From Desulfosudaceae bacterium (GTDB lineage: Bacteria > Desulfobacterota > Desulfobacteria > Desulfobacterales > Desulfosudaceae), in assembly GCA_963674745.2 (NCBI GenBank), contig CAXXDV010000003.1, positions 1,344,001 through 1,408,000 of the forward strand: a stretch of 64,000 bases of DNA, given 5' to 3'. How positions within the stretch are numbered: position 1 is the stretch's first letter; each line of letters opens with the position of its first letter. Below the pieces are notes generated by a model that did no database searches, was not told the origin of the DNA, and saw only the letters and a list, made by a program, of their open reading frames with translations. A program made the translations under genes and the position numbers. Shown in pieces: positions 47,436 through 62,827 of this stretch.

Positions 47436-49517
47436 TTATTTCTCCTGCTTTTTATTTTTCATTTTTTCAATTTCTTCGGCAATGGCCGCCGGCACCTGCT
47501 GGTAAGCCATAAACTCCATGGCGAATTGTGCCTGTCCCTGGGTAGATGACCGCAGAACGTTTGAGAAACCGAACATTTCAGCCAACGGTACCTGGGCTTC
47601 AATCGCACAGGAAACGCCTTCGTCCTGGGTACCGACAATGATACCGCGCCGCTGGTTTAACAGCTTCATTACGCCGCCCTGAAATTCCGGCGGGGTTTCA
47701 ACCGTTACTTTCATTATGGGTTCATGAATAATCGGACCGGCCTTTCTGTAAGCTTCGAGAAAGGCGCCTCGGGCCGCGGCCTCAAAAGCCATTTCCGATG
47801 AATCAACCGAATGAAAGGCGCCGTCATTGATTTCAATTTTGACATCCACCACCGGGAATTCCAGCCAGGGCCCCTTATCCATGCACTTTGAAAAGCTTTT
47901 TTCACAGGATGGAATATATTGGGTCGGTATGGCACCCCCGGTTATTTTGTTTTCAAACACGAAACCCTCTCCGGGAGCGGGTTCCATGTATCCCGCGACG
48001 CGCCCGAACTGACCTGCCCCACCCGTCTGTTTTTTATGGGTATAATTAAATTCAACCCGGCGGGTGATTGTTTCCCGGTAAGCCACCTGGGGGCTACCGA
48101 TGGAGATGGCGGCGTCATATTCACGGCGCATACGTTCCAGATAGACATCCAAATGCAGTTCGCCCATACCCTGGATAATTGTTTCGTTGGTCTCTTTGTC
48201 CACAAACGTTTGAAAGGTCGGATCTTCCCTGGTAAACCGGCCGATGGCTTTGGACATGGCGATTTCCGACTTGTTGTCCTTGGGCTTGATGGCCAGAGAG
48301 ACGACCGGATCGGGCACGAAAATAGATGTCATCGTCAGCCTTAAGCCGTCACTGGTAAACGTGTCGCCGGAAGCACAATCGATCCCGAACAAAGCGCCGA
48401 TACCGCCGGCCGATATTCGTTCGATATCTTCCATCTGGTCGGCATGCATGCGTACCAGCCGGCCGATGCGGACTTTCTTACCCGTTCTGACATTGATGAC
48501 GTTATCCCCTTTTGATAAGGTTCCCTGGTATACGCGCACATAGGTCAACTGACCGTAACGCCCGTCTTCCAGTTTAAACGCCAGGGCGACGACGGGCTGG
48601 CCCGGGTCGTGGGACAGGGTCACCTGCGACTGATCATTATCCAGGTCAATAGCCGTGTTCTGTGCGTCTTCAGGGGCCGGCATATAAGTGATAATCGCGT
48701 CCAGCAGGGGTTGTACACCCTTATTTTTGTAAGCCGATCCCACGAAAACCGGCGTCAATTCCCGGGCAAAAGCGCCCTTCCGGATGGCTTCAGCCAGCAT
48801 CGCTTCGGTAATTTCCGTTTCTTCCAGAACGGCATCGGTCAGTTCTTCCGAAAAGGCTGATGCGGCATCGATCAGCACTTCACGCTGTTCTGCCGCCCGA
48901 TCTTTAAGGTCATCCGGAATTTCAGTGGTTTTGATTGTCTCACCGTTGTCACCCTCGAAATAAACGGCTTTCATGGTTACCAGGTCCACAACGCCATTAA
49001 AATCCGCTTCCAGGCCAATGGGAATCTGTATCAGCACGGCATTGTGGCCGAGTTTATCTTTGAGTTGTCGGGTTACGCGAAAGGGATCGGCCCCGCTGCG
49101 GTCACATTTATTGACAAAGGCCAGGCAGGGAACCTTATACCGCTTCATCTGCCGGTCCACGGTAATCGACTGGGATTGGACCCCGCCCACGGCGCACAAG
49201 ACCAGGACGGCACTGTCCAGGACCCGAAGTGACCGCTCAACTTCAATAGTAAAATCCACATGGCCCGGTGTGTCGATAATATTGACGCTATACCCCTTCC
49301 ACTCACAAAAGGTCGCCGCCGAGGCGATGGTAATCCCCCGCTCTTTTTCAAGCTCCATGAAATCCATGGTCGCACCCACGCCGTCTTTTCCCTTAACGTC
49401 ATGGATAGAATGAATCCGTTGGGTATAGAACAGTATCCGTTCGGTCAGTGTGGTTTTTCCCGAATCAATATGGGCGCTGATGCCGATGTTTCTCAGTTTC
49501 TGTTTTGCAGGTTTCAT
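47436..49517 (-). CDS. fusA: Elongation factor G
   Basis: [40 protein letters not shown]. Confidence 0.97.
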
Positions 49518-49847
49518 TTTTCAGTAATACCCTATTTTAATAATCTTTCATCAATCTCTTGGATTAAAACAATAAAACGGTAAAAGCCGGTTTATGAGTC
49601 GCGCTCCGGGTGTCATACGGATAACTTAAGCAGCATGATTACAGAAAACAGTTCAGGGATACTTAGTCTTTTCCATTCCCGAAAAAATCTGTTGTATATA
49701 TCAGGTTGTTTTTCATGGTGCAAGAGAAAAGATGTGAACACAAGATAATTATCGTTCGCCTCAAGAGCGATCACAGATCCCCTTAAATCGCCGACTGTTT
49801 CCTCCGCCTCTCTGGTTACACCTGATAAATGTCATCCCAAAGCCACT

Positions 49848-49906
49848 TGACAACATGTGGTACCCTCAAAAATATTGACACACAAGATGCTCTTGCTATA
49901 TATAAT
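49848..49906 (+). promoter_or_regulatory. Putative promoter region of the radical SAM operon with two NrdR-box-like sites
   Basis: TTGACA 49875-49880 and TATATATAAT 49897-49906; TGACAACATGTGGTAC (49848) and ACACAAGATGCTCTTG (49880), 32 bp apart. Confidence 0.35.
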
Positions 49907-49932: not shown

Positions 49933-51300
49933 ATGCAGCCTCTTCCTCCACATATGCATGTCTACATCATACCCTTCCAGGATAAGTTTGTCGTCTACAG
50001 ACCTTTAAAAAGATTAGCCTTTATTGCTAATTCGGCCATGGTTAATCTTATTGCGAAGATACAGGAGAAGTCACATTTTAAGGGCCTGCCGACGCACAGT
50101 GAAGCCATGGCCTTTCTCGATGCCGTCGGTTTTTTTGAACCCGACCCCCGGCCTACCCAACCGCCGCCAGTTCAAGAACCGTATTTACCGACAGTCGCGG
50201 TCGTGTTTTTAACCACTGACTGTAATTGTAAATGTGTTTATTGTTATGCTTCAGCAGGCGGTGTGCCGGCCACGGAAACGCTTCCCGTCAGGCTGGGATA
50301 TCGCACCATTGATGTTGTCTGTGAAAATGCCCTGCTGACCGGAAAAAACAAATTCACGTTGAGCTTTCATGGCGGCGGCGAACCGACGATGGCGTCGAAA
50401 AAAATGAAACAGCTGATAAATTACGCCAGAAAAAAAGAAGTACCCTGTCATGCCAATCTTACAACCAACGGTTGCTGGTCTGCGGCTGACAGGGAGTGGA
50501 TTCTGAACAATTTTGACGATGTCAGCCTCTCTTTTGACGGTTTGCGTGAAATTCAGGACCGCCAGCGTCCGCTTGCAAGCGGTAGAGGAACATATGACCT
50601 GGTTATGGCGAGCATTACGGCCATGGACCAGCGGCAGTTGTCTTATGGTATCCGAATGACGGTAACAGAGGACTCTGTCGATCAATTGCCGGAAAACATG
50701 AAATTCCTTTGCAGCAGCACGGATTGCCGGGTTTTCCAGGTGGAGCCGGCGTCCAATCATGGACGGGCAATGCAGGGCCATAATGCCCTGACCCAATACG
50801 ATCGATTTGCCCGGGCCTTTCTTAAAGCATATGATATTGCCGTGGCTGCGGGCAGGCACATGTATTATTCAGGCGCAAGGCCCTGGGTGATTACCCCACG
50901 TTTTTGTCAGGCCCCGGAAAATGCTTTGATTGTGGGTACGGACGGGTTTCTCACGGCATGTTATGAAGTGTGCAGTAGAGACCACGAACTGGCGGGGCTG
51001 TTTTGCTTTGGTGATATCTCCGAAAACGGGATAATGTCCGTGCACGAAAAGACCCGGCAGGCGCTTTTTGAAAAAATTGAACAGCGAAAAAAACAGTGCC
51101 GGGACTGCTTTTGTTTCTGGCATTGTGCCGGAGACTGCCCGTCCAAGACAATGACGGCGGATGGCAGGGGGCACCTTCGGTTTGACCGACGGTGTGATTT
51201 GAACCGCCATATTACCCGGGAACTGATTATACGCAACATTACAAACGGTAACGGTATCTGGCAGGGGGCATCAGAAGAACAGATGCTTGTCGCCTGTTAG
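49933..51300 (+). CDS. Radical SAM/SPASM peptide/protein maturase with N-terminal RRE-like region
   Basis: CNCKCVYC, FHGGGEP, TTNG, SFDG; SPASM FCQA...DG.LTAC...CRDCFCFWHCAGDCP...RC. Confidence 0.92.
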   Translation: MQPLPPHMHVYIIPFQDKFVVYRPLKRLAFIANSAMVNLIAKIQEKSHFKGLPTHSEAMAFLDAVGFFEPDPRPTQPPPVQEPYLPTVAVVFLTTDCNCKCVYCYASAGGVPATETLPVRLGYRTIDVVCENALLTGKNKFTLSFHGGGEPTMASKKMKQLINYARKKEVPCHANLTTNGCWSAADREWILNNFDDVSLSFDGLREIQDRQRPLASGRGTYDLVMASITAMDQRQLSYGIRMTVTEDSVDQLPENMKFLCSSTDCRVFQVEPASNHGRAMQGHNALTQYDRFARAFLKAYDIAVAAGRHMYYSGARPWVITPRFCQAPENALIVGTDGFLTACYEVCSRDHELAGLFCFGDISENGIMSVHEKTRQALFEKIEQRKKQCRDCFCFWHCAGDCPSKTMTADGRGHLRFDRRCDLNRHITRELIIRNITNGNGIWQGASEEQMLVAC

Positions 51301-51327
51301 GGCAGTTAACACCAAAAGGAATCGACG

Positions 51328-51780
51328 ATGGAAAAGAGAAGGAATCCTGGCGCTGCGACAACATCCCGCCGGAACTTTTTCCGTCGTTTTTTTACTGAAA
51401 CGATAAGCCTTATTGAGGAAGCCAGGGGAACCCCCCAGCTCAACCTGAATGATATCGCAGCGCTCCCGGATGAGATTTTCGGTAGTATCATTCCGGTTTT
51501 CAGTGAACATACCCGGTATCGGATTGAAGGTGATCGGCTACTCATCGTCGATGAAAAGAGCGCTATTTTCAGAAAAGCCTATCAATTTACGCCTCGAGAG
51601 CTGTATGTTTTGAATCAATTTGACGGACATAATACATTAAATTCAATTGTTTATGTAATTATAAACCAGTTTGACCAAGATGCCGAAGCAGCGTTTCAGC
51701 AGGTAAAAAATCTGTTCTGCACCATGGCCGGATACGCGGTATGCCATCCGCTGCATGAAACACCGGAGCAGCAAAAATGA
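51328..51780 (+). CDS. PqqD/RRE-like protein with an N-terminal twin-arginine motif
   Basis: C-terminal VLNQFDGHNTLNSIV..I...F.....AFQQVKNLF..M matches the PqqD pattern; N-terminal SRRNFF has no hydrophobic h-region. Confidence 0.65.
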   Translation: MEKRRNPGAATTSRRNFFRRFFTETISLIEEARGTPQLNLNDIAALPDEIFGSIIPVFSEHTRYRIEGDRLLIVDEKSAIFRKAYQFTPRELYVLNQFDGHNTLNSIVYVIINQFDQDAEAAFQQVKNLFCTMAGYAVCHPLHETPEQQK

Positions 51781-53162
51781 ACCGGGCAGATATTGCCGAT
51801 ATTTACGCCATTTCCTTACCAGAAGAGAAGTTTCTGCTATATTCCCCGTTAAGGGGTTTTTCCGCGCTCGTAAACCGGAAAGCCCTTGATGAATCCGCCC
51901 GGTTTGTAACGGGAAAACCATGCCGAAACAGGGGGGCGTCACCGCTTGACGCTATTTTCAATGCGCTTTCAACGCCTGCTTTACCCCCTCCATTTGAACC
52001 GGATAAGCTGCTGGCTCCTTTTTTTCTGGGTATTATTCCCACGCGGGCCTGTAACATGTCCTGCCGTTATTGCGATTTCGGGGACCAATCGCCGGGTTCG
52101 CAGTCCATGGATTTACGGACTGCTGTAGCTGCTGTGGACTGGATGGCGGACCATGTTTATCGGACAGGCCGGGATAAACTGGAAATCCACTTTTTCGGCG
52201 GAGAGCCGTTTGTCGCCCCAGATGTCGTGGACGCCGCCGTTTACCGGGCGCGGGCTGTTGCCGGGGAAAAAGGGATACCCCTTCATCTGGAAGTGTCCAC
52301 CAACGGTCTATTTGATGAGAACAGGGCCGTTTTTGTGGGGGATTACTTTAATTCAGCTGTTATTTCCCTGGATGGATTCCGGGAAACACATGACCGTCAC
52401 CGCCCCCTAGACGGGAGCAGAGGTAGTTTTGATGGTGTCGTAGAGTCAATTCGGCGGCTTTCGATGACGCCGGCAGAGGTTTGTCTGCGGTGTTGTATAT
52501 CGCATATAAACGTGGACAGGATGGAAGCGATTGCCCGGTGGTTCTGTGAAGAATTAAAACCATCTGTCGTAAACTTTGAAATCGTAAGTTCAAATTCAAA
52601 ATCAGATGCGGCGGGATTGTTTCCGCCCGACCCGTATCGTTTTGCCGGTAATTGCGTTCGGGCCTGTCGTCTTGTCCGACAATTCGGGATTCAAGCGGTT
52701 TACGCGTCGGCATCTATTGATACCGTGCGTCGAAGTTTTTGTCCCATGGGAAAGGATACCTTGATCGTTTCTCCCGATGGACGGATCAGCAGTTGTTATC
52801 TGCCGGACAGGGACTGGAAGAAAAAGGGACTGGATCTTGATGTGGGACGTCTGAGAACGGATGGTTCAATGGATATTGACATGGCTGCAATCCAGCGTCT
52901 GCGCCGGATAACCGCCGATAAGCCCGGCTGTGAAAAATGCTTTTGCAAATGGACTTGCGCCGGAGGCTGTCATGTCAGGCAATACGATCAGGCAGCTGTT
53001 TCTACAAAAAATGATTTTTGTGTTCAGACGCGCCTTATTACCGCCTGTTCTCTGCTGGACAACCTTGGATTCCGCGATCTGGCCGATTCGCTTCTGGCGG
53101 ATATGGACGCGATGGAAACTCTGGCGTTGAATCCATCGGATTATTTGGTACAATTCACATGA
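51777..53162 (+). CDS. Radical SAM/SPASM peptide/protein maturase with N-terminal RRE-like region
   Basis: CNMSCRYC, FFGGEP, STNG, ISLDG; SPASM FCPMG...PDG.ISSC...CEKCFCKWTCAGGCH...FC; ATGA overlap with the upstream gene. Confidence 0.92.
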   Translation: MNRADIADIYAISLPEEKFLLYSPLRGFSALVNRKALDESARFVTGKPCRNRGASPLDAIFNALSTPALPPPFEPDKLLAPFFLGIIPTRACNMSCRYCDFGDQSPGSQSMDLRTAVAAVDWMADHVYRTGRDKLEIHFFGGEPFVAPDVVDAAVYRARAVAGEKGIPLHLEVSTNGLFDENRAVFVGDYFNSAVISLDGFRETHDRHRPLDGSRGSFDGVVESIRRLSMTPAEVCLRCCISHINVDRMEAIARWFCEELKPSVVNFEIVSSNSKSDAAGLFPPDPYRFAGNCVRACRLVRQFGIQAVYASASIDTVRRSFCPMGKDTLIVSPDGRISSCYLPDRDWKKKGLDLDVGRLRTDGSMDIDMAAIQRLRRITADKPGCEKCFCKWTCAGGCHVRQYDQAAVSTKNDFCVQTRLITACSLLDNLGFRDLADSLLADMDAMETLALNPSDYLVQFT

Positions 53163-53196
53163 TGTATGGAAATTAAACCATAACGAAAGAGGCCAT

Positions 53197-54822
53197 ATGG
53201 ATGACTCTAGAAAAGATGATCGCTTGAAGCAAGTGCCCGAGAATCCGGATGAAAAACCTGAGGTGTACGCGGTCTCAATGAAAAAAAAGAGGGTTTCATT
53301 AAGCCGTCGTGCTTTTTTGGGCAGTATCGGTACCGGCGCGCTGCTGACCGCCTGTGCTGAACTAAATCCTCAAAAAAACGGATGTGTCGACAAAACAGCC
53401 GGCCGGCCGGGGGGTGTTTCACAATTACCGTCGGAACCGGTAAAAGAAGTGTATGAGTGGTGCGAAAATTTTAATACCCATTCAAATTCCGTCAATGCCC
53501 TGGCTGTCAGCCCGAATGGCCGGATGCTGGTGTCGGGAAGCGCCGACACAACGATCAAATTATGGTCTCTCCCCGGGGGAAAGCTCCTGAAAATCTTAAA
53601 GGGGCATTCAAATGTTGTAAATACGGTAGCCGTCAGTCCGGACGGCAAGCTGCTGGCTTCCGGAAGCGGCGGTAAGACTGTCAGGCTGTGGTCTCTTAAA
53701 AATGGCCGGGGGCTGCTTTCTTTGAAAGGGCATTCAGCGTTTGTCAAGTCTGTTGCCTTCAGCCCGGATGGCCGGCTGCTGGCTTCCGGAAGCGGAGACA
53801 AAACCATTAAGTTGTGGTCTCTGCCGGAGGGGAAACTGCTGAAAACCCTGACGGGACATTCGAGTTATGTGTATGCGGTTGCCTTCAGCCCGGACGGTAA
53901 ATTTCTAATATCCGGAAGCGCTGACAAAACCATCCGGTTGTGGTCTTTGCCGGACGCAATGCTGTCACAAACCCTGACAGGGCATTCCGACTATGTCAAC
54001 TCACTGGTTGTCGGTTCGGACAGCCGGCTCCTGATATCGGGAAGCTGTGACAGAACGATTAAACTGTGGTCTTTGCCGGACGGGGGGCTGTTGCAAACCC
54101 TGGCAGGTCATTCCGGCTGGATCAATACTTTAGCGATCAGCCTGTGCGGACATCTGCTGGCGTCGGGAAGTGCTGATAAAACGGTAAGAATATGGTCCCT
54201 GCCGGAGGGTAAACCGCTTCTGGTGATGATGGGCCAGGATTTGCCGATAAAATCCGTGGTAATCAACCCGGAAGGGAATTTGTTAATATCGGCCGGTAGT
54301 GACAAAACCATTACCGTATGGACGCTTCCGGATGGATCCCCCAGTTGGTGCTTTTCCGATCCTGCCTTAACCGCGCCGCAGGAGATGAAAACCTTTCGTC
54401 AGATGGGATTTTGCACCCGGATCCTGCCCTGTGGCGCACAGATACCGCCGGGGGCTGTTTGCACTTGTAATTGTGTGGCAGCGGCCTCTATCCACAAGGG
54501 GCCTGAAACGATCTGTATTTGTGATACCATCGCCGTCCCGGCCTTCAAAACGCTGCCGGGAAATACGGTGTGTGTCTGCAACACAATTTTAGTCGGCACG
54601 GGTTGTATCCCCAAGAATCATGAACGGCACATGTCAGGGAAGTCCTGTACCTGCAATACTATTTGTACCTGTGATACGGTGTCGAGGGCCGGTCTTCCTT
54701 GTTCCCGTTATGCTGTAGGCGGCCACACAAAACAGACGACCGGAACGACTTGTACCTGCGATACCATCTGCACCTGCGATACGGTTTCAACAGGAGGCGG
54801 GCATTACTGGTATCCCACTTAA
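53197..54822 (+). CDS. Tat-exported lipoprotein with 7 WD40 repeats and a Cys-rich repeat tail (putative modification substrate)
   Basis: SRRAFL Tat motif (aa 36-41), LTA-C lipobox (Cys53), seven 42-aa WD40 repeats, 7x C-x-C-[DN]-[TC]-[IV], C-terminus GGGHYWYPT. Confidence 0.88.
   Translation: MDDSRKDDRLKQVPENPDEKPEVYAVSMKKKRVSLSRRAFLGSIGTGALLTACAELNPQKNGCVDKTAGRPGGVSQLPSEPVKEVYEWCENFNTHSNSVNALAVSPNGRMLVSGSADTTIKLWSLPGGKLLKILKGHSNVVNTVAVSPDGKLLASGSGGKTVRLWSLKNGRGLLSLKGHSAFVKSVAFSPDGRLLASGSGDKTIKLWSLPEGKLLKTLTGHSSYVYAVAFSPDGKFLISGSADKTIRLWSLPDAMLSQTLTGHSDYVNSLVVGSDSRLLISGSCDRTIKLWSLPDGGLLQTLAGHSGWINTLAISLCGHLLASGSADKTVRIWSLPEGKPLLVMMGQDLPIKSVVINPEGNLLISAGSDKTITVWTLPDGSPSWCFSDPALTAPQEMKTFRQMGFCTRILPCGAQIPPGAVCTCNCVAAASIHKGPETICICDTIAVPAFKTLPGNTVCVCNTILVGTGCIPKNHERHMSGKSCTCNTICTCDTVSRAGLPCSRYAVGGHTKQTTGTTCTCDTICTCDTVSTGGGHYWYPT
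53473..54327 (+). repeat. Seven tandem 126-bp WD40 coding repeats
   Basis: Repeated (G)HS..V..VA.SPDG.LL.SGS.DKT(I/V).LWSL with a 42-aa period. Confidence 0.9.
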
Positions 54823-54834
54823 GCCGGACGGCAG

Positions 54835-57672
54835 ATGAATATTTTAACTCCTGCGAATAAAAACGACATAACCGACGATTTCACGGCAGCGGACACTTTT
54901 TCTGTCGGCAATTTTATGCTTAAGGGGAAGGTCCATCCGAAACTGCCTCTGTTTGAACTGCGTTCGGGCGGTCAAAGCGTATTGTATGCGCCCGGAAAAG
55001 TTGCCGTTGTAGATTATCCGAATGCCGAAGCGATCTGCCGGGCATGGTCCGGAGACGGTGTCCTGTCTCCGGGCAGCATTTCCGGTCAGACGGCCCGATG
55101 GCTTGAAACGCATGCGGAAAATGCCCTGAAAAAATGGAAGGCTGTTACCGGCATGCCTTTCCAGCCCGAATGCCTGACCATTTACCCGGGTATTCAGTGC
55201 AACCTGAAATGTGGTTATTGTTACGCGCGGAACCGTGACGTTGATGAAACAGCGGGAAGCAGGTCAGGCCGTCCGGTTATGGCTGATTCGGTTGTGGCTT
55301 CCGCTGCCGCGATTGTAGCGAAAAACTGCGCCGACAAAGGACTTCCGTTTCATCTGGTTCTGCACGGCGGTGGAGAGCCCTCATACTACTTTGATCAGGT
55401 GCGCCGTTATACGGCGATAACCCGCCAGGCTGCCCGGCAGCTCGGGCTGGACTGGTTCGGGTATATCGCCACCAATGGGGTAATGCCTGAAAAAAATGCC
55501 CGGTGGCTGGCTGAAAATTTTACGCGGATCGGACTGTCGTGCGACGGCCCTCCAGATATTCAGGACAGGCAGCGGCCGCTTAAAACTGGCGGCAGAACCT
55601 CGCCACAGGTAAAACAGACCGCGCGTATTTTAACTGAACATGGCGCGGATATGGTTGTCCGCGCCACCCTGACACCCTGGTCTTTTTCTCGTCAGACTGA
55701 AATTGTCACCTATTTTTATGAGCATTTAAATCCATCCGCCATACGTTTTGAACCGGCTTTTCGACTTCGGGATAATGGGCATCCGGGATTCACCGCAGAC
55801 GATGCGTCAATTTTTGTCGAGCATTTTCTGGCTGCCAGGAAGACAGCAGAATCCATGGGATGCCATCTTTCCTTATCCGGTATCCGGCCCGAAGAGATCC
55901 ACGGCCCTTTTTGCGATGTCCTGCGGAATGTCCTGCGTCTGGGACCGGACGGTTCGGCTACGGCCTGTTTTCTGATATCAGATGAAACGGTACCTGTCAG
56001 TTCGCCTTTTTTGATTGGCCGGGCGGACCCGGACACGGGTGATTTTATTTTAGACACCAAAAAGATAGAGGCATTCCGGCGTTCCGTCGCCGTCATACCT
56101 GCCGAATGTGAACAATGCATCAATATCTGTCATTGCGCCCGGGGATGTCCGGACCGGTGTCCGGTTTTAACCGGGTCGCCCGTTGATCCGGAGAATAAAA
56201 ATAATAATAATTTTCTGTGCCGGTTGTATCAAAAACTGGCGCCGGCCCTCATTATGGACGCAGCGGACAGGTTGATAAACAGAGAACAAAAAAAGGCGGT
56301 GACGATACTACCCGATATCGGCATCTCCGATGAAGCCGGCCTTAACCTGAATGATCTGCCGGCTGCCGTAAACAGGGAAGAGATCAGAAAACAGTATGAC
56401 GCGGTGGGCGGTACCTATGATATTACAGCCGGCCGCTTGCCGGAGCCTGCCTGGCGGAAAAAGGGGTTTACCTTCAATGGCCCTGATGCCTGGCATTATC
56501 TGCGTCGGGTTTTACCGGATACGGATCACGCCCGACCGGTGTCTATTTATTTCCATGTCCCGTTTTGTGAACACCGGTGTGCCTTTTGTGACTGCTATGC
56601 CTTTCCCTTCGGGAAAAAAAGGTCCGTAAAAGAAGAGGCCTTTTGCCGGGCGCTTGTAGCTGAAATGCGTTTTTGGTCGGATATTTACCCGATCAGCCGA
56701 CGCCGGGTTACGACCGTCCATTTCGGCGGAGGGACCCCGGGGTGTTTGAATGCTCCTGTGTTTGATCGAATTCTGACGGAATGCCGCGATCTTTTTAAAG
56801 TCCATGAGCAGACGGAATGGGCGCTGGAAACAACCGTTTCTCACATCAGGCAGGAAGATTTGAACCGGTTGGGAAAATTGGGCTTTTCCCGGCTGCATGT
56901 TGGGGTTCAGACCTTAAATGAGGATTTAAGGCAATCCATTGGGAGAAGGACTTCAGCCAAGGATGCTGTCTTCAGGCTGAAAAAGGCCATGGGGGCAGGT
57001 TTTGTTGTTTCCGTAGATATTTTATATGGCCTCCCCGGACAGCGCTTATCGGATGTGCTGAATACCCTGTCGATCCTGATTGACATGGAGATTCACGGTC
57101 TGTCGCTTTACCGTTTCAATGTATCAAAACGGAATCGATGGTATATTAAGCGTTGCCGGGAGTTTAACCCGGATCCGCGTCGTGATTACTTGATGTTTCA
57201 GGCCGCGGAGCAAATGCTGACCAAAGCCGGTTATCGGAAAAACCATTTTGCGCATTTTGCAAAACAAGCGGATCGCAACCTGTATTTCACCTGTCCGCTG
57301 AGGGGGGAAGACCTGCTGGCCATGGGGCCGACGGCAGACGGTTTTTTCGGTAATTATCGATACCGTAACGCGGAATATGCAAGGTATATGAACCAGTTGC
57401 AAAACAAATCAGGCATGCCGGTGCTGCAAGGCTGTCTTGAGGAATCAGACCTTGAGGTCAGGGCGCGTCCGGCGATCCTCGACATTATGGGCAGCCATAT
57501 CCGGAGAAGCGTTCATGAACATCTGGGTATCGACAGTCTGATCAAGAAATGGGAAGACTGTCTGCTGATCGAAAATTTATCCGGCGGAAATGATTTTGCG
57601 TTAACACCGAACGGCTCCTGGTTTGTTAATCAAATGATTGCTGATGTTTTACATGATCTTGAAAGCAGGTGA
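54835..57672 (+). CDS. Double radical SAM protein: radical SAM/SPASM fused to a HemN-like (class C) radical SAM domain
   Basis: CNLKCGYC (aa 122), LHGGGEP, SPASM CEQCINICHCARGCP; second domain IYFHVPFCEHRCAFC (Cys578), VHFGGGTP, RLHVGVQT, VDILYGLPGQ. Confidence 0.9.
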   Translation: MNILTPANKNDITDDFTAADTFSVGNFMLKGKVHPKLPLFELRSGGQSVLYAPGKVAVVDYPNAEAICRAWSGDGVLSPGSISGQTARWLETHAENALKKWKAVTGMPFQPECLTIYPGIQCNLKCGYCYARNRDVDETAGSRSGRPVMADSVVASAAAIVAKNCADKGLPFHLVLHGGGEPSYYFDQVRRYTAITRQAARQLGLDWFGYIATNGVMPEKNARWLAENFTRIGLSCDGPPDIQDRQRPLKTGGRTSPQVKQTARILTEHGADMVVRATLTPWSFSRQTEIVTYFYEHLNPSAIRFEPAFRLRDNGHPGFTADDASIFVEHFLAARKTAESMGCHLSLSGIRPEEIHGPFCDVLRNVLRLGPDGSATACFLISDETVPVSSPFLIGRADPDTGDFILDTKKIEAFRRSVAVIPAECEQCINICHCARGCPDRCPVLTGSPVDPENKNNNNFLCRLYQKLAPALIMDAADRLINREQKKAVTILPDIGISDEAGLNLNDLPAAVNREEIRKQYDAVGGTYDITAGRLPEPAWRKKGFTFNGPDAWHYLRRVLPDTDHARPVSIYFHVPFCEHRCAFCDCYAFPFGKKRSVKEEAFCRALVAEMRFWSDIYPISRRRVTTVHFGGGTPGCLNAPVFDRILTECRDLFKVHEQTEWALETTVSHIRQEDLNRLGKLGFSRLHVGVQTLNEDLRQSIGRRTSAKDAVFRLKKAMGAGFVVSVDILYGLPGQRLSDVLNTLSILIDMEIHGLSLYRFNVSKRNRWYIKRCREFNPDPRRDYLMFQAAEQMLTKAGYRKNHFAHFAKQADRNLYFTCPLRGEDLLAMGPTADGFFGNYRYRNAEYARYMNQLQNKSGMPVLQGCLEESDLEVRARPAILDIMGSHIRRSVHEHLGIDSLIKKWEDCLLIENLSGGNDFALTPNGSWFVNQMIADVLHDLESR

Positions 57673-57946
57673 AGATGGTTCACTTTGATCCTGATGTCGT
57701 CTGGTCTGTTGACTGCCGCGGTTTGTCGCTGGTTCACCGTAAAACAGGTGACCGCGCTTGCCTGGTTTATCCCCAAGCCGCTTTATGGGATCTGTTGAGC
57801 AGAGAGGTGGAAATGACGAGGATCATCCGGATCATGACGGCTCTGACGGCGTTGAGGACCCGGCTGTCCGGCTATGGTGCCGCCGGACCGTCCAGGGCTG
57901 GATTGACGCGGGCTGGATGCTCGAAGACGGGGAAACCGCATCATGA
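57669..57946 (+). pseudogene. PqqD/RRE-like gene split by a 1-base frameshift near 57846-57850 (pseudogene or assembly error)
   Basis: First frame gives ..YPQAALWDLLSR..IIRIMTALT; the -1 frame continues GVEDPAVRLWCRRTVQGWIDAGWM..TGA, overlapping the next ATG (ATGA 57943-57946); joined length ~92 aa. Confidence 0.65.
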
Positions 57947-59940
57947 CGAATCTTTCCCTTACCTCTGAATGTAACCAGAATTGTTCATACTGCTTTGCCG
58001 GGAATATAACGGAAGTCAGCCGTTTTCCCCGCCGGGAGTATGATGGGTTCCTCGCGTTTTTGAGGCGGTCAGGGATCAAGCAGGTCCGGTTGCTGGGCGG
58101 TGAACCCACGCTTCATCCGGACTTTATTTTTTTTGTAGAAGAGGCTTTCCGTCAGGGCTTTCATGTGCTGGTATTTTCAAACGGCATGATGCCTGAAAGC
58201 GCCGTAAAATGTCTTGAAATCCTGCCCCCGGACAAGCTACTGGTTCTGGTAAATACCACCCCTTCCCGGCGTTGGAACATGAACCTACGTGGTCGCCGGA
58301 TCGAGATATTGAAACGTTTGAATCAGAGGGTAATGATCGGTTTAACCATTCACACAACGAACCCTGATATTGATTCCATCTGTTCGTATATTGAAATATT
58401 GAATTTACGCCCCGCCATCCGCCTGGGTCTGGCCCATCCCTGCCCGGACAGCACCAATCAATGGTTGCCTCCCAAGCATTATTGTCTGGTCGGACAAATC
58501 ATAGCCGATTTTATCATTCGGCACCCGGATCTGTCGATCGAGTTTGATTGCGGCTTCGTGCCCTGCATGTTCCCGGACTGGTTTTTTTCACAGTCTGTTT
58601 TCAAACCGGAGGACATCGGGCGCCGCTGCGGGCCGATACCGGACATCTTACCCGATGGCTCAGTAGTGCACTGTTTTCCGTTACGTGCCATATCGAAACT
58701 GACACTGGATCAACTGGCCTGTGCCCGGGCGGCAGGAAAAGAATTGTCGCGAATGGTTGCACCGTATCAGCATACGGGTATTTTCCCGGAATGCGGCTGC
58801 TGTGAATATCGGACGGCGGATCAGTGCTCCGGCGGTTGTATTGCGGCAGCCGGCCGGCGCTTGAGAAGTTCGTCTCAATGCTTTTCTCTGTCAATTCCGC
58901 TCAGCACATCCCTTGCGTCGGATTTTACCGGCAATGAGCCGTCCCCCGGTAACGGGACGCTGGAAGATGTGAACGATGCCAGGGTGGACAAAGATTTCAT
59001 CATTCCGTATATCGATCAGCCACCGCGTTTCTGGGAGGAAATTTATAGCGCCTTTGGCCGGTTTATCAAAAAGGTGTATTGTCCCCTGCCCGGCAGTAAA
59101 ATCGGTTCCGGGCGTCCGCCTCAACCCGATGACCATTTACATCAATTTTTATGTTCCGGTTATTTTGAGACGGATATCCTTATCAACTCGCCTTTTGTTA
59201 AAGAACCGCTGGACGATTTTACAAGCCGTGTCATCAGGGAATTGAGGCTGTTTTCGGAGAAATACCCTTTATCGGGCGTGACGATTGCCAATCGTAAGGT
59301 CGGCAGACGGATCCGGGAGGTATTTCCTGACCTGACCCTGACGGCTTCGGTGTTGATGGATGTTTACGGGCCTGATCAGATAAAACGGATGGGGGATACT
59401 TTTGACTGCCTGGTTCCGTCCAGCAGGATTATGCGTAATATCAATGCCCTGATGCGGATCAGGCAGGCTTTTGCCGGGAAGATACGGTTGATCGCCAATG
59501 AAGCGTGCCTTCCGGGCTGCCCCTACCGTGATCAGCATTTTTACGAGATGAATTCCGACCGTTCGTACCCTGAATCGCTCTGTACCGACCTTCTCGAGGA
59601 AAAACCATGGCTGCGCTTAACCGGTGCCTGGGTTCTTCCGCAGCACCTGTCTTTTTTCGATACCATCTATGATGAACTCAAACTGGCGGGCCGCGTTACC
59701 TTAAAAGATCCGGCAAAGTATATGAAGGTGCTGAATGCTTATATTACCGGGACGCCGCTGACCCCGGATGAAATCGGCGGCGGGCCGGCGTCTGTCCTAG
59801 ACCCTGTTTATATTGATTCTGATTTTTATTTTTCCACGTTAAATTGTGATAAACAATGCCATCAATGCGATATCTGCAGCACATATTATGAAATGCAGAC
59901 CAATCCGGTAGAAAATGAAACAGAAAAAGTGCCTGTATGA
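57943..59940 (+). CDS. Radical SAM/SPASM domain fused to a peptidase U32-family domain
   Basis: CNQNCSYC, LLGGEPTLHP, FSNG, CGP..DILPDG.V.HCFP, CGCC...CSGGC; C-terminal IGSGR, ASV, ANEACLPGCP...H, LKLAGR, CDKQCHQCDIC. Confidence 0.85.
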   Translation: MTNLSLTSECNQNCSYCFAGNITEVSRFPRREYDGFLAFLRRSGIKQVRLLGGEPTLHPDFIFFVEEAFRQGFHVLVFSNGMMPESAVKCLEILPPDKLLVLVNTTPSRRWNMNLRGRRIEILKRLNQRVMIGLTIHTTNPDIDSICSYIEILNLRPAIRLGLAHPCPDSTNQWLPPKHYCLVGQIIADFIIRHPDLSIEFDCGFVPCMFPDWFFSQSVFKPEDIGRRCGPIPDILPDGSVVHCFPLRAISKLTLDQLACARAAGKELSRMVAPYQHTGIFPECGCCEYRTADQCSGGCIAAAGRRLRSSSQCFSLSIPLSTSLASDFTGNEPSPGNGTLEDVNDARVDKDFIIPYIDQPPRFWEEIYSAFGRFIKKVYCPLPGSKIGSGRPPQPDDHLHQFLCSGYFETDILINSPFVKEPLDDFTSRVIRELRLFSEKYPLSGVTIANRKVGRRIREVFPDLTLTASVLMDVYGPDQIKRMGDTFDCLVPSSRIMRNINALMRIRQAFAGKIRLIANEACLPGCPYRDQHFYEMNSDRSYPESLCTDLLEEKPWLRLTGAWVLPQHLSFFDTIYDELKLAGRVTLKDPAKYMKVLNAYITGTPLTPDEIGGGPASVLDPVYIDSDFYFSTLNCDKQCHQCDICSTYYEMQTNPVENETEKVPV

Positions 59941-60049: not shown

Positions 60050-60475
60050 TTATCCAAATATATCGATTTTACTTTCACCGCTCATATATCTGAAATAGTC
60101 AGACAAAATACGCCCGTGATCAAAAGCCAGGGTTTCCGGCAAGGTGTCTTTGGTATAAACAACGGCCCTGGCGGCATCGTCTGCAGCAATGGGCGTACCT
60201 TCGGCTTCGGCGATAAAAACGACGCTGGCCGTATGGTGACGGGGGTCACGGGCTGGATCGGAATAAACGTGAAACTGCTCTTTCAGGCTCACATTCAGCC
60301 CGGTTTCTTCAGCCGCCTCGCGAACAGCAGCCCTTTCCACCGATTCACCGTAATCGACAAACCCGCCCGGCAAAGCCCAGCCATAGGGCGGATTTTTGCG
60401 TTCAATCAGAATGATACCGCCATTGATTTGAATAATGATATCAACAGTCAAAAAGGGGTTGCGGGGATTGTTCAT
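60050..60475 (-). CDS. NUDIX hydrolase
   Basis: Nudix box [35 protein letters not shown]. Confidence 0.93.
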
Positions 60476-60538
60476 ATACGGATTCTTCCCTTTCAAAGCC
60501 AGGCCGGTGTTTTTGTTATTTAAGAGGCTGGGTTGTTC

Positions 60539-60862: not shown

Positions 60863-61124
60863 CTAAGTAACTTAACAAAAAAACGCCATATGTTGTGTTA
60901 TATACACGCCGAAGCACAACCCACGAAACAACCCAGTGTAAGAAAGTTATTTGTAGGTTTGGTTCCGGGCCGTGCCCGGTTGGAACGCTAATCACCCGCT
61001 CACCAAGTCATTATTTTAAACCCGTTGATTTCAATTGCTTTTTGTAAATACAGCGTTATATAGAGAGTATCCGAAATAAACGCCTTTCTAATTTGAGCAA
61101 AGAGGTTTTTTGATGGGAGACTGG

Positions 61125-61529
61125 ATGTCCGAGTTGTTTCGACTGAAATCAGTCTTTAAACCGTTGGTTATTGTTATGCTGGGGGGCGGTCTGGGCGCGG
61201 CCAGCCGATATCTGGTCGGTTTATTGAGCGCCAGGATATGGGGGACTCATTTTCCCTGGGGAACGCTTATCGTTAATCTGGCGGGTTGTTTTCTGATCGG
61301 TTTTTTTTTCGCCCTTTCGGACCGGGCCCGACTGCTGACACCGGAAATGCGCCTTCTGTTGATCACCGGATTTCTGGGCGCACTGACCACATTTTCTACG
61401 TTTTCTCTTGAAACCACCAACGCCGCTCGAGCCGGCATGACGCTTCAGCCGGTTGTTAATATTCTGGTCAACAACCTGGGCGGTATCGGCTTGACCTTTC
61501 TGGGGTTATGGCTGGGAAGCCTTAAATAG
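61125..61529 (+). CDS. crcB: Fluoride efflux channel Fluc/CrcB
   Basis: GGGLGAASRY, GTLIVNLAGCF, TGFLGALTTFSTF. Confidence 0.95.
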   Translation: MSELFRLKSVFKPLVIVMLGGGLGAASRYLVGLLSARIWGTHFPWGTLIVNLAGCFLIGFFFALSDRARLLTPEMRLLLITGFLGALTTFSTFSLETTNAARAGMTLQPVVNILVNNLGGIGLTFLGLWLGSLK

Positions 61530-61537
61530 GGGGGGGA

Positions 61538-62827
61538 ATGCTTAATTACAAAGCGATCGAGATTTTTACCAGCGAAGAAGCACGTTACCGGAAAAAGCCG
61601 TTAGTCGATACGGTCCTGCAATATATCAAAGACTTGAAGATTGCCGCCCGCTGTATCGTCACCCGGGGTATTGCCGGTTGTTACGAAAGCGGTGAATTGA
61701 CGACTACCCGCCTGGAAATCCTCTCTTTCAACCTGCCGGTCCGAATCTATATCGTTCTTCCAGACGCTGAAGCCGAACGGGTGCTCGACGGACTGAACGA
61801 GATGATCACCGACGGCATCGTGGCGCTGCATGATCTGAACGTACTCTGTCACCGGACGCAAAATGCCTTTTTTCCCAGGCAGCTCCTGGTTCGGGACGTC
61901 ATGACCCGCGATCCGGAATGTGTGACAGCCGGCACCGCTTTGAGCGATGTGGTTCGCCTGCTTTTATCCTCGATTTTTTCAGGGTTGCCCGTAGTCGATG
62001 AGTTCAACCGTCCCGTGGGTGTCATCACCCAGGGGGATTTGATTAAAAAAGGCGGCCTTCCCCTGCGTTTGGGGCTGCTGGCAGAGTCCGATCAGAACCG
62101 CCTGGCGTCTGTTTTAAACCGGCTTTCTTCCCGAACGGCCAGCGAAGTCATGACGACACCGGCGGTGATGATTGCCGCCGACCAGCCATTAACCAAAGCA
62201 GTGGAACTGATGTTGAACAAAGGCGTTAAACGCCTGCCGGTAGTCGATAAGAACGGCGGAATCTCAGGCATGCTGTCGCGGCTGGATATCTTCCGGACGG
62301 TCATGCGGGAGGCGCCGGACTGGGACACATTCAAGGCGCAAAAAATAGAAGTAAAACAGCTAAAACGCGTAGGGGACATTTTACACCGGGACGTGCACGC
62401 CGTCTCACCGGAGACGACGATTGATGAAGTTATCCGGTTTATCGATGACAACGCCATTCAACGGGTGGCCGTTGTTGACACCGGGGGAAAACTGCTGGGG
62501 TTGATTTCGGATCGTGATTTGCTGCGATACTTCAAGCCGGAGCAGGAAGGTGTCTGGCGTATATTGGCAAAGATGAAAAACCCCTTCAAGCAGGAGACTT
62601 CCGATTCCGGAGATATTCAAAAGCGCCTGTCCGAGATAACCGCAGGAGCGGTCATGACAACAACGGTGATTACGGTTGATGAGGACATGAAAATCGAAAC
62701 GGCCATCGGTTTGATGCTTGACAAGGGGCTAAAACGGCTTCCCGTAATTAACCGGGATGGCCGGTTCCAGGGCATGATCAGTCGGGACGCGCTGTTGCGG
62801 ACGGGGTATGGAAGCCAGGCGTCTTGA
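61538..62827 (+). CDS. DUF190 (PII-like) domain plus two CBS-pair protein
   Basis: N-terminal IFTSE...VTRGIAG...LS.NLPV.I; four CBS domains (VRDVMT, LPVVD, G.ISRxD); directly after crcB. Confidence 0.85.
   Translation: MLNYKAIEIFTSEEARYRKKPLVDTVLQYIKDLKIAARCIVTRGIAGCYESGELTTTRLEILSFNLPVRIYIVLPDAEAERVLDGLNEMITDGIVALHDLNVLCHRTQNAFFPRQLLVRDVMTRDPECVTAGTALSDVVRLLLSSIFSGLPVVDEFNRPVGVITQGDLIKKGGLPLRLGLLAESDQNRLASVLNRLSSRTASEVMTTPAVMIAADQPLTKAVELMLNKGVKRLPVVDKNGGISGMLSRLDIFRTVMREAPDWDTFKAQKIEVKQLKRVGDILHRDVHAVSPETTIDEVIRFIDDNAIQRVAVVDTGGKLLGLISDRDLLRYFKPEQEGVWRILAKMKNPFKQETSDSGDIQKRLSEITAGAVMTTTVITVDEDMKIETAIGLMLDKGLKRLPVINRDGRFQGMISRDALLRTGYGSQAS

Follow-up and report, generated by a model that had tools for sequence, protein, structure and literature searches.

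A seven-gene cluster at positions 49933-59940 of a 64,000-nucleotide stretch of DNA from a Desulfosudaceae bacterium (contig CAXXDV010000003.1; hereafter, the window) probably encodes a protein-scale maturation system resembling those of peptides that are made on the ribosome and modified after translation (RiPPs), in which the product of the fourth gene, g4, would itself be the substrate. The seven open reading frames (ORFs) in the window's ORF list all lie on the plus strand and are tightly packed: g1 (49933..51300; 455 amino acids [aa]), g2 (51328..51780; 150 aa), g3 (51777..53162; 461 aa), g4 (53197..54822; 541 aa), g5 (54835..57672; 945 aa), g6 (57669..57968 as read in the window, 57669..57946 with its frame restored), and g7 (57943..59940; 665 aa). 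Three junctions are gaps of 27, 34, and 12 bp; the others are 4-bp ATGA/GTGA overlaps. An earlier reading of this DNA, made from the letters alone (the sequence-only reading), had described seven co-oriented genes with gaps of 12-34 bp or such overlaps, and the ORF coordinates match it exactly. The enzymes g1, g3, g5, and g7 carry radical S-adenosylmethionine (radical-SAM) domains, g2 and g6 are candidate PqqD-like proteins, and g4 joins a twin-arginine signal and a WD40 propeller to a Cys-rich tail.

Enzyme sets at loci fetched by the tail

The evidence that carries this reading comes from the genes found around the tail in other genomes. Loci were fetched by two tail patterns only, [GD]A[VTI]C[TIL]CNCV and [EQ][TQ][VI]C[IV]CDT[IV], which were drawn from an alignment of five tails, with one genome taken per species; because nothing but the tail was used, the sampling was blind to the enzymes. 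A total of 154 stretches carrying a pattern gave 128 confirmed ones, the best 80 of which were kept, and these yielded 72 loci with at most 10 kb on each side. Each locus was searched in six-frame translation with the window proteins, split by domain, and with a hidden Markov model (HMM) of the tail. One locus (L044) had no match to the tail HMM, and the other 71 were divided into class A (35 loci), with tails ending in YW[YHRF]P, and class B (36 loci), with other ends, often CTCVPIK or CTCNLVYY. Together, the loci span at least eight phylum-level groups, as judged by their record titles.

At least one homolog of g3, g5, or g7 was present at 31 of the 35 class-A loci, while homologs of g2, g3, g5, g6, and g7 were found at none of the 36 class-B loci. 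The class-A counts were 24 for g1, 22 for g2, 26 for g3, 24 and 18 for the N- and C-halves of g5, 10 for g6, and 25 and 17 for the N- and C-halves of g7. Among the class-A exceptions, the contigs of L009 and L017 end 212 and 561 bp past the tail gene, and L020 and L032 are second loci of metagenome-assembled genomes that hold the full cluster at L010 and L014. A g1 homolog was found at 31 of the 36 class-B loci, making g1 the one enzyme common to both tail classes. It lay within 300 bp of the tail gene at 29 of these 31 loci and at 17 of the 24 class-A loci that bear it. All tails also share a core, (Y/W)T(L/Q)PCGxP(I/L)PxGAxCxCNCV, which is most simply read as the target of g1, with the YWxP(N/S/T) end as that of the other enzymes. 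Co-occurrence of this kind, like the gene content, the domains, and the motifs, was observed directly.

A second association concerns the residue that precedes YW. Where this residue is His, a HemN-like domain, a U32-like domain, or both were present at 23 of 27 loci, the exceptions being L009 and L013 (contig end) and L020 and L032 (the second loci mentioned above); where it is Thr, Ser, Gly, or Val, neither domain was found at any of the 8 loci. Three non-His loci with ample flanks (L012, L041, and L046) encode the N-halves of g5 and g7 as stand-alone genes. The others include L017 and L061, which are cut, L015, which is partly cut, and L069, which looks degraded, so that few of them are informative. 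We take it as a lead that the His before YW may be tied to the HemN-like and U32-like domains.

The sequence-only reading had named this neighborhood survey in advance as the place where it could fail, and radical-SAM homologs were found to adjoin the tail genes at nearly all loci fetched by the tail. Its proposal that the enzymes act on the tail of the WD40 protein itself is also favored by the co-occurrence seen from the tail side, both for the enzymes (31/35 compared with 0/36) and for the His-linked domains (23/27 compared with 0/8).

The g4 protein, its leader, and its tail

The first 36 residues of g4 (53197..53304, plus strand) form a conserved leader-like stretch, DDRLKQVP...KPEVYAV. 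They are followed, in residues 36-53 (53302..53355), by the motif SRRAFLG, a hydrophobic stretch GSIGTGALL, and a lipobox LTAC ending in Cys53. Residues ~90-390 (53464..54366) make up a 7-bladed WD40 beta-propeller (Pfam WD40, seven stretches, E 1.5e-82; AF2 pLDDT [predicted score in the local distance difference test] > 90). The Cys-rich tail, residues 385-541 (54349..54819), holds 20 Cys in 157 residues (12.7%) and seven CxC(N/D)(T/C) motifs; no Pfam or NCBIfam model matches it. Within the tail lie the universal core PCGAQIPPGAVCTCNCV (residues 411-427, 54427..54477), which is shared by both tail classes, has near-invariant columns in the alignment, and is the proposed target of g1, and the C-terminal HYWYPT (residues 536-541, 54802..54819), which we propose as the target of g3, g5, and g7 on the basis of the enzyme-set association. 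In the alignment, Y537 is invariant, and W538 and P540 are near-invariant. The 541-aa WD40 protein with a Cys-repeat tail is, then, as it had been described from the letters. In the AF2 model, only the propeller is confident: the pLDDT falls below 50 for tail residues 425-541 and is ~57 for the leader.

The word-indexed search with the tail retrieved 14 proteins, of which 13 have WD40-type Pfam domains (P0012 has none). The N-terminal stretch of g4 is present in all 14, and in 12 of them the last residues are HYW(Y/R)P plus N, S, or C; P0007 has a different end, and P0012 ends in TYWYPN. With a profile of 15 tails, HMMER found 571 cluster representatives at E <= 1e-3, 94 at E <= 1e-10, and 21 at E <= 1e-30 among 1.84 billion scanned. 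A search of the ESM Atlas with the tail gave no usable match. Among 401 genomes sampled from the phylum of the window, none but the genome of the window itself gave a match to the tail, and its distribution is therefore patchy.

The middle domain is not constant across the family. SH3_3 was found in its place in L013 and L072, with weaker SH3_3 matches in L041 and L061; L016 and L023 have an Ig-like domain there (N_BRCA1_IG, E ~1e-26), and L033, L070, and P0012 show nothing recognizable. Since SH3 or Ig-like domains replace WD40 at some loci, we read the propeller as cargo and the leader/signal and the tail as the constant parts of the protein. The idea of a RiPP-like domain displayed on a beta-propeller can be kept for g4, which has the WD40 domain, with the correction that the propeller is not essential to the family.

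Several features were also seen around the tail in related proteins. In L010, L022, L037, and L042, three to four paralogous tail genes stand in tandem, like the multiple precursors of RiPP systems. Some class-B proteins continue past the Cys tail (...CTCIPVP) into a self-cleaving Peptidase_S74 "chaperone of endosialidase" domain, with matches above the cut-off (E 8.7e-10 and 2.8e-9), as in L054 (7511-10573) and L063 (8501-10576) and also in L051 and L064. Trimeric phage fibers are where this domain is typically met, and its presence here may mean that a free end of the tail, and perhaps the forming of trimers, is of importance. In six other class-B loci (L025, L036, L047, L050, L059, and L066), ~150-200 residues follow the tail and contain a conserved CQAH(R/K)LLDxDPxVR... 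domain, for which no Pfam match was found in the two proteins scanned.

Near the N-terminus, a P-x-(I/V/L)-(Y/F/...) motif stands exactly 16 residues before the invariant RR in both tail classes, and P21, R37, and R38 are invariant and at fixed spacing in 44 sequences. The n-regions of signal peptides are usually variable, and conservation of this leader consequently calls for a reader. When g1 was co-folded with residues 1-60 of g4 (alignments of 43 and 44 rows, respectively), the score was 0.79 (runs of 0.80, 0.79, and 0.79) compared with 0.00 for the best of three controls; among solved complexes, 116 of 157 reach the mark used, and among mismatched pairs, 2 of 215 do. Contact agreement between the runs was at least 69%, and the pLDDT of the partner was at least 59. 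The predicted interface pairs residues 10-61 and 388-442 of g1 with residues 4-16, 19-28, 33, and 35 of g4. The alignment of g1 with CteB begins only at g1 residue 49. These models support, short of showing it, a contact in which the N-terminal domain of g1 grips the leader stretch ahead of the twin arginines. In closed WD40 propellers, the two termini are usually neighbors, and the propeller would thus bring the leader and the tail of g4 together.

Export through the twin-arginine translocation (Tat) pathway and lipidation had been proposed from the letters, and part of that proposal stands: g4 carries the SRRAFLG and LTAC motifs, and TatC (PF00902) is encoded in the window's genome (E 1.1e-73). 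The Tat-signal HMMs are silent on the protein, as discussed below. From the motifs, we infer that g4 is exported by Tat and lipidated.

The composition of the tail invites a different explanation, namely that it is an unmodified, metallothionein-like domain that binds metal or iron-sulfur (Fe-S) clusters, and that the radical-SAM genes serve another substrate, for instance a small molecule or a peptide missing from the annotation, or only deliver clusters to the tail. The Cys content and CxC spacing of residues 385-541 would suit such a role, as would the missing AF2 fold, and metal binding is also discussed for CrpA, a Cys-repeat protein considered below, in the sections of its report covered here (PMC13692751). 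We find this quite improbable. The enzyme set varies with features of the tail that are not Cys (the YWxP end and the His before it), g1 is CteB-like and the co-fold puts the g4 leader on it, no other candidate substrate ORF was found in the cluster, and Tat-exported Fe-S proteins have no need of five radical-SAM domains. A tail that is itself modified by the cluster enzymes is the reading that we retain.

Enzymes and small proteins of the cluster

Five CxxxCxxC radical-SAM motifs are present, at residue 97 of g1, residue 92 of g3, residues 122 and 578 of g5, and residue 10 of g7, and the Pfam Radical_SAM model recognizes g1 and g3, each half of g5, and g7 in its N-half, in agreement with the five domains counted in the sequence-only reading. 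The SPASM motif CxxCx5Cx3C occurs at residue 389 of g1, residue 385 of g3, and residue 425 of g5, in its N-half. The N-half of g7 has a SPASM-like variant, CxxCx7Cx3C, at residue 284 (CGCCEYRTADQCSGGC). The Pfam SPASM model matches g1 and g3 only.

On Pfam, motif, and Protein Data Bank (PDB) profile evidence, g1 is a CteB-like radical-SAM/SPASM enzyme, with a predicted N-terminal leader-binding domain resembling a RiPP recognition element (RRE). Its closest solved relative, found with a profile of 43 g1 orthologs against the PDB, is CteB (5wgg; E 1.6e-47 over g1 residues 49-426). The second radical-SAM/SPASM enzyme, g3, was found only beside YWxP-ended tails. The NCBIfam model of PapB gave 110.3 bits for g1 and 117.3 bits for g3, below its cut-off of 340, and a ScfB-type model gave 100.6 bits, below its cut-off of 425; relative to the cut-offs, the other models of such peptide maturases scored lower than PapB.

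The two remaining enzymes are fusions. The N-half of g5 (54835..56394, plus strand) is a third radical-SAM/SPASM domain by its CxxxCxxC motif, its SPASM motif, and its Pfam match; it aligns with positions 4-329 of the 330 in the PapB model at 60 bits, and it is a separate gene in L010, L014, and L039. The C-half (56497..57672) is a HemN/ChuW-like radical-SAM domain of the class C type, with CEHRCAFC at residue 578, and aligns with positions 27-415 of the 419 in the ChuW/HutW model (E 1.3e-54). Its bit scores lie below the equivalog cut-offs of ChuW/HutW (185.7 versus 400), HemW (143.5 versus 205.4), and HemN (134.9 versus 324.95), and we describe it from its sequence as HemN-like and assign it no function. 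This near-full alignment bears out the earlier description of g5 as a SPASM and HemN-like fusion. The N-half of g7 (57943..58932) is a radical-SAM domain with a SPASM-like Cys cluster (Pfam Radical_SAM, E 6.2e-13) and is a separate gene in L010, L014, and L016.

The C-half of g7 (58933..59940, plus strand) is a divergent U32-like TIM-barrel domain according to ortholog, profile, and fold matches. The window copy has no Pfam match at E <= 1, and 11 of the 17 orthologs of this half match PF01136 at that threshold, the best at 4e-5. Its AF2 model (pLDDT 83.1) has as its top Foldseek match the U32 peptidase Mk0906 (5d88; E 8.8e-8, template-modeling [TM] score 0.63 by target length), followed by generic TIM barrels at E >= 4.6e-5. 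A profile of this half scored 504 bits in the window's genome and 112.6 bits in the next best case among the 401 genomes of the phylum, and the proteins that it retrieved in other genomes pass the Pfam U32 cut-off (3 of 3 tested). A PDB sequence-profile search gave nothing significant, the best hit being a TIM barrel at E 0.17. On these sequence and model grounds, we regard the C-half of g7 as a distant U32 relative, so that the SPASM and U32 fusion named in the sequence-only reading holds, with the window copy tied to the family through its orthologs, fold, and profile. The nearest relatives of this half are stand-alone proteins of ~355-365 aa, which score 100-113 bits (L076, L077, and L078, in genomes G171, G362, and G034); the tail was not found in these genomes.

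The conserved Cys of this half are at residues 522, 526, and 547 (Cx3Cx20C) and at residues 635, 639, 642, and 645 (Cx3Cx2Cx2C). Their spacing is not that of the four-Cys motif CX6CX15CX3/4C, which is given for most U32 families in the sections covered of PMC6747719. The terminal Cx3Cx2Cx2C cluster (window 59845-59877) is invariant, lies outside the usual U32 Cys pattern, and may be an extra Fe-S site.

Of the two small proteins, g2 has an N-terminal RRxFF and matches ScmD (E 3.4e-4). The window copy reaches 13.1 bits with PF05402 (cut-off 23.4; E 0.12), and 5 of 22 g2 orthologs match PqqD at E <= 1, the best at 1.5e-5. The N-terminal RRxFF(R) is invariant in all 22 proteins of the g2 family (R14 and R15); it resembles a twin-arginine motif, with no hydrophobic stretch after it, and it may mimic or pair with the Tat motif of the substrate. 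For g6, the second candidate, the window fragment has no PqqD match, and 5 of 11 orthologs match, the best at 9.4e-6. The two PqqD-like/RRE proteins named from the letters are in this way recovered through orthologs and through the ScmD match of g2, with the window copies remaining below the PF05402 cut-off, and we call g2 and g6 weakly PqqD-like.

As read in the window, g6 goes out of frame after ~residue 61, which raises the question of whether the cluster here is a decaying, non-working remnant. The alternative frame continues with a homolog-like C-terminus, and its stop overlaps the start of g7 as ATGA. In contigs of two public runs, one more T stands behind 57851 (TTT compared with the window's TT, 57851-57853), which gives a 92-codon g6 frame and is their sole difference from the window over 57500-58200; the two runs come from one sample, possibly the source of this assembly, and run X3 (share 0.16) has no coverage of 57500-58200. 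Because these contigs restore both the frame and the ATGA overlap, the frameshift reported in the sequence-only reading, although present in the window, probably arose in assembly. The other genes of the cluster are all intact, with their conserved residues kept, and we consider a remnant very improbable.

The set of small proteins and enzymes also bears on an explanation in which g4 is a mere carrier: HYWYP(N/T) would be made into a diffusible cofactor or peptide and then cut off, by the U32-family domain or by an unlinked protease. Pyrroloquinoline quinone, made from PqqA, and mycofactocin, made from MftA, are carrier-derived cofactors, and two PqqD-like proteins with several SPASM enzymes acting on a near-invariant C-terminal hexapeptide would resemble the logic of PqqA/PqqD/PqqE and MftA/MftB/MftC. 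The S74 domain after the tail in some class-B proteins also implies cleavage at the tail end in the wider family, although an S74 cut would leave the Cys tail on the protein instead of releasing it. A cofactor precursor that stays in the cytoplasm would have no use for a conserved export signal or a folded binding domain, and no dedicated protease or exporter was found in the cluster. U32 was first named as a peptidase family, but the characterized members cited in the covered sections of the same paper are hydroxylases (PMC6747719). On balance, we judge this explanation unlikely and continue with g4 as the finished, exported product.

Beyond the cluster, an EF-G gene (47436-49517) lies on the strand opposite to it, and a NUDIX gene (60050-60496, minus strand, E 1.1e-21) is on the other flank; the location between fusA and a NUDIX gene was correctly read. 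A sigma-70-like promoter site, TTGACA-18-AATATT (49847..49876, plus strand), is a consensus match only (10/12 positions) and sits ~57 bp 5' of g1, inside a 415-bp gap. Terminator-scan sites were no commoner than in shuffled sequence (13 compared with a mean of 14.6). No short Cys-rich ORF, protease, or ABC transporter was found in or beside the cluster by ORF list and Pfam, as the sequence-only reading had also stated for a short precursor ORF, a dedicated protease, and a peptide ABC exporter; Pfam likewise found no flavoprotein domain within the cluster. Further along, at window 61110-62827, a CrcB-like gene is directly followed by a gene for a DUF190 protein with four CBS domains; these two are unrelated to the cluster and may be a fluoride-related pair.

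Proposed maturation, known systems, and meaning

We propose the following order of events. The N-terminal ~35 residues of g4 would serve as a leader, placed directly before the twin-arginine export motif, and would be bound in the cytoplasm by the RRE-like N-domain of g1 and probably also by the PqqD-like g2 and g6. The g1 enzyme would then cross-link the PCGxPxPxGAxCxCNCV core, most likely through thioethers from Cys to Asn, Asp, or Thr, and g3 and the N-halves of g5 and g7 would act on the YW(Y/H/R)P(N/T/S) end, on the CxC repeats, or on both. The HemN-like C-half of g5 and the U32-like C-half of g7 would add a modification connected with the His before YW, for which family analogy suggests C-methylation and O2-independent hydroxylation. 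The finished, folded g4 would leave through Tat, become lipid-anchored at Cys53, and display a binding domain (here WD40) with a rigid modified tail.

Several points weigh against this scheme. Related genomes are non-independent samples, and the non-His loci represent only ~4 lineages. The g1 gene is absent from the fetched DNA at 11 of the 35 class-A loci, mostly on cut contigs, although L037 has ~6 kb on each side, and no enzyme lies within 8-10 kb of the tail gene at L035, L020, and L032. Solved RRE-leader complexes exist, one presumably being the CteB entry, which we take to hold its leader, and the co-fold score may reflect likeness to these. The Tat-signal HMMs (PF10518 and TIGR01409) have no match on g4 or on its first 101 residues, the window's own g2 and g6 do not reach the PqqD HMM cut-offs, and AF2, with a pLDDT below 50 there, says nothing on the fold of the g4 tail, which could simply bind metal. 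Finally, no cluster enzyme reached any of the NCBIfam equivalog cut-offs (PapB, ScfB, QhpD, CrpC-type TIGR04463, and others), which makes the proposed chemistry a matter of analogy only.

The scheme can be carried one step further. The HYW(Y/H/R)P(N/T/S) end might become a protein-bound aromatic cofactor (cross-linked, C-methylated, and hydroxylated or quinone-like), built in the cytoplasm without O2 by three SPASM cross-linkers, a HemN-type methylase, and a U32-type hydroxylase, and held on a thioether-stapled Cys stalk; Tat export would take place only after the RRE domains release the leader, which overlaps the n-region of the signal. We think this rather unlikely. If true, it would make the system an anaerobic counterpart of the quinoproteins that carry tryptophan tryptophylquinone or cysteine tryptophylquinone, set on swappable WD40, SH3, and Ig-like domains.

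The proposal for g1 can be set beside the pairs CteB/CteA and PapB/PapA, which belong to SCIFF and ranthipeptide maturation. Likeness to them is found in the radical-SAM core and SPASM domain of g1 and its profile match to CteB, in the prediction that the N-terminal domain of the enzyme receives a leader-type stretch of the substrate, and in a Cys-rich target with Asp, Asn, or Thr next to Cys. The differences are that g4 is a 541-aa exported protein and not a short ribosomal peptide, that ~370 residues separate its leader, which is joined to a twin-arginine signal, from the core, and that four further radical-SAM domains and a U32-like domain are present here.

A precedent for a protein-sized SPASM substrate is QhpC, an extracytoplasmic subunit with a modified Trp in which the SPASM enzyme QhpD cross-links Cys to Asp/Glu. 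In quinohemoprotein amine dehydrogenase, this small cross-linked subunit stands beside a 7-bladed propeller. The QhpD model TIGR03906, however, gives only 73.2 bits for g1 and 79.4 bits for g3 (cut-off 453), no QhpE-type protease, QhpF-type exporter, or QhpG-type flavoprotein was found in the cluster, and SH3 or Ig-like domains can stand in for the propeller here. We gave less weight to a close structural analogy with methylamine dehydrogenase and quinohemoprotein amine dehydrogenase, in which a propeller is combined with a small cross-linked quinone subunit, as some loci have SH3_3 or an Ig-like domain in place of the propeller and others lack it.

With regard to export, TorD, DmsD, and NapD are Tat proofreading chaperones, which bind at or next to the twin-arginine signal until maturation is done. 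Here, too, a cytoplasmic protein would bind g4 at or next to this signal; the binder, however, would be an RRE/PqqD-type domain, and the bound motif lies upstream of RR.

CrpA, also of protein size and the nearest precedent, is the 28.8-kDa substrate of CrpC in Methanococcus voltae. According to the sections of PMC13692751 covered, CrpC is an RRE-bearing SPASM enzyme that puts ranthionine/thioether links on the C-terminal Cys repeats of CrpA, and the conserved N-terminus of CrpA engages the CrpC RRE. The likeness lies in a full-size protein with a Cys-repeat region at its C-end as the substrate of a SPASM enzyme. The differences are that the family model TIGR04463 gives 74.9 bits for g3 and 49.2 bits for g1 (cut-off 525), that Crp has one enzyme and the present cluster has five radical-SAM domains, a U32-like domain, and two PqqD-like proteins, and that a Tat signal, a WD40 domain, and a YWxPN end are not described for CrpA in those same sections (PMC13692751). 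For the U32-like half, members of the family such as UbiU/UbiV are described as O2-independent hydroxylases (PMC6747719; PMC10990095). The C-half of g7 is like them in its TIM barrel, closest to Mk0906, in its kinship to PF01136 by profile, and in conserved Cys that could hold an Fe-S cluster; it differs in the spacing of these Cys and in its fusion to a radical-SAM domain, and it would act on a protein. A paper that mentions both WD40 and SPASM (PMC7159879) concerns unrelated conflict systems in the sections covered and was set aside.

No description of this system was found in the full-text literature, with the tail motif strings included among the queries and subscription journals outside the scope of the search, and the earlier statement that no characterized system has this architecture holds within that scope. 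To our knowledge, nearly all known cases of RiPP-type radical-SAM chemistry concern short peptides, with QhpC and CrpA as rare whole-protein cases. The evidence from sequence supports the view that the cluster represents RRE-guided radical-SAM/SPASM maturation in which the substrates are whole exported proteins and the enzyme set is unusually large. The system would add a widespread whole-protein case, with 571 tail representatives and loci from at least eight phylum-level groups, and its five radical-SAM domains, U32-like domain, and two PqqD-like proteins would make its enzyme set the largest of its kind among the systems compared here. The recognition motif would be built into the Tat signal, and the cargo domain would be interchangeable. 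The family would also come with candidate assignments of enzymes to motifs, g1 to PCG...CxCNCV, g3 and the N-halves of g5 and g7 to the YWxPN end, and the HemN-like and U32-like domains to the His, and it would allow the study of cytoplasmic maturation coupled to Tat export.

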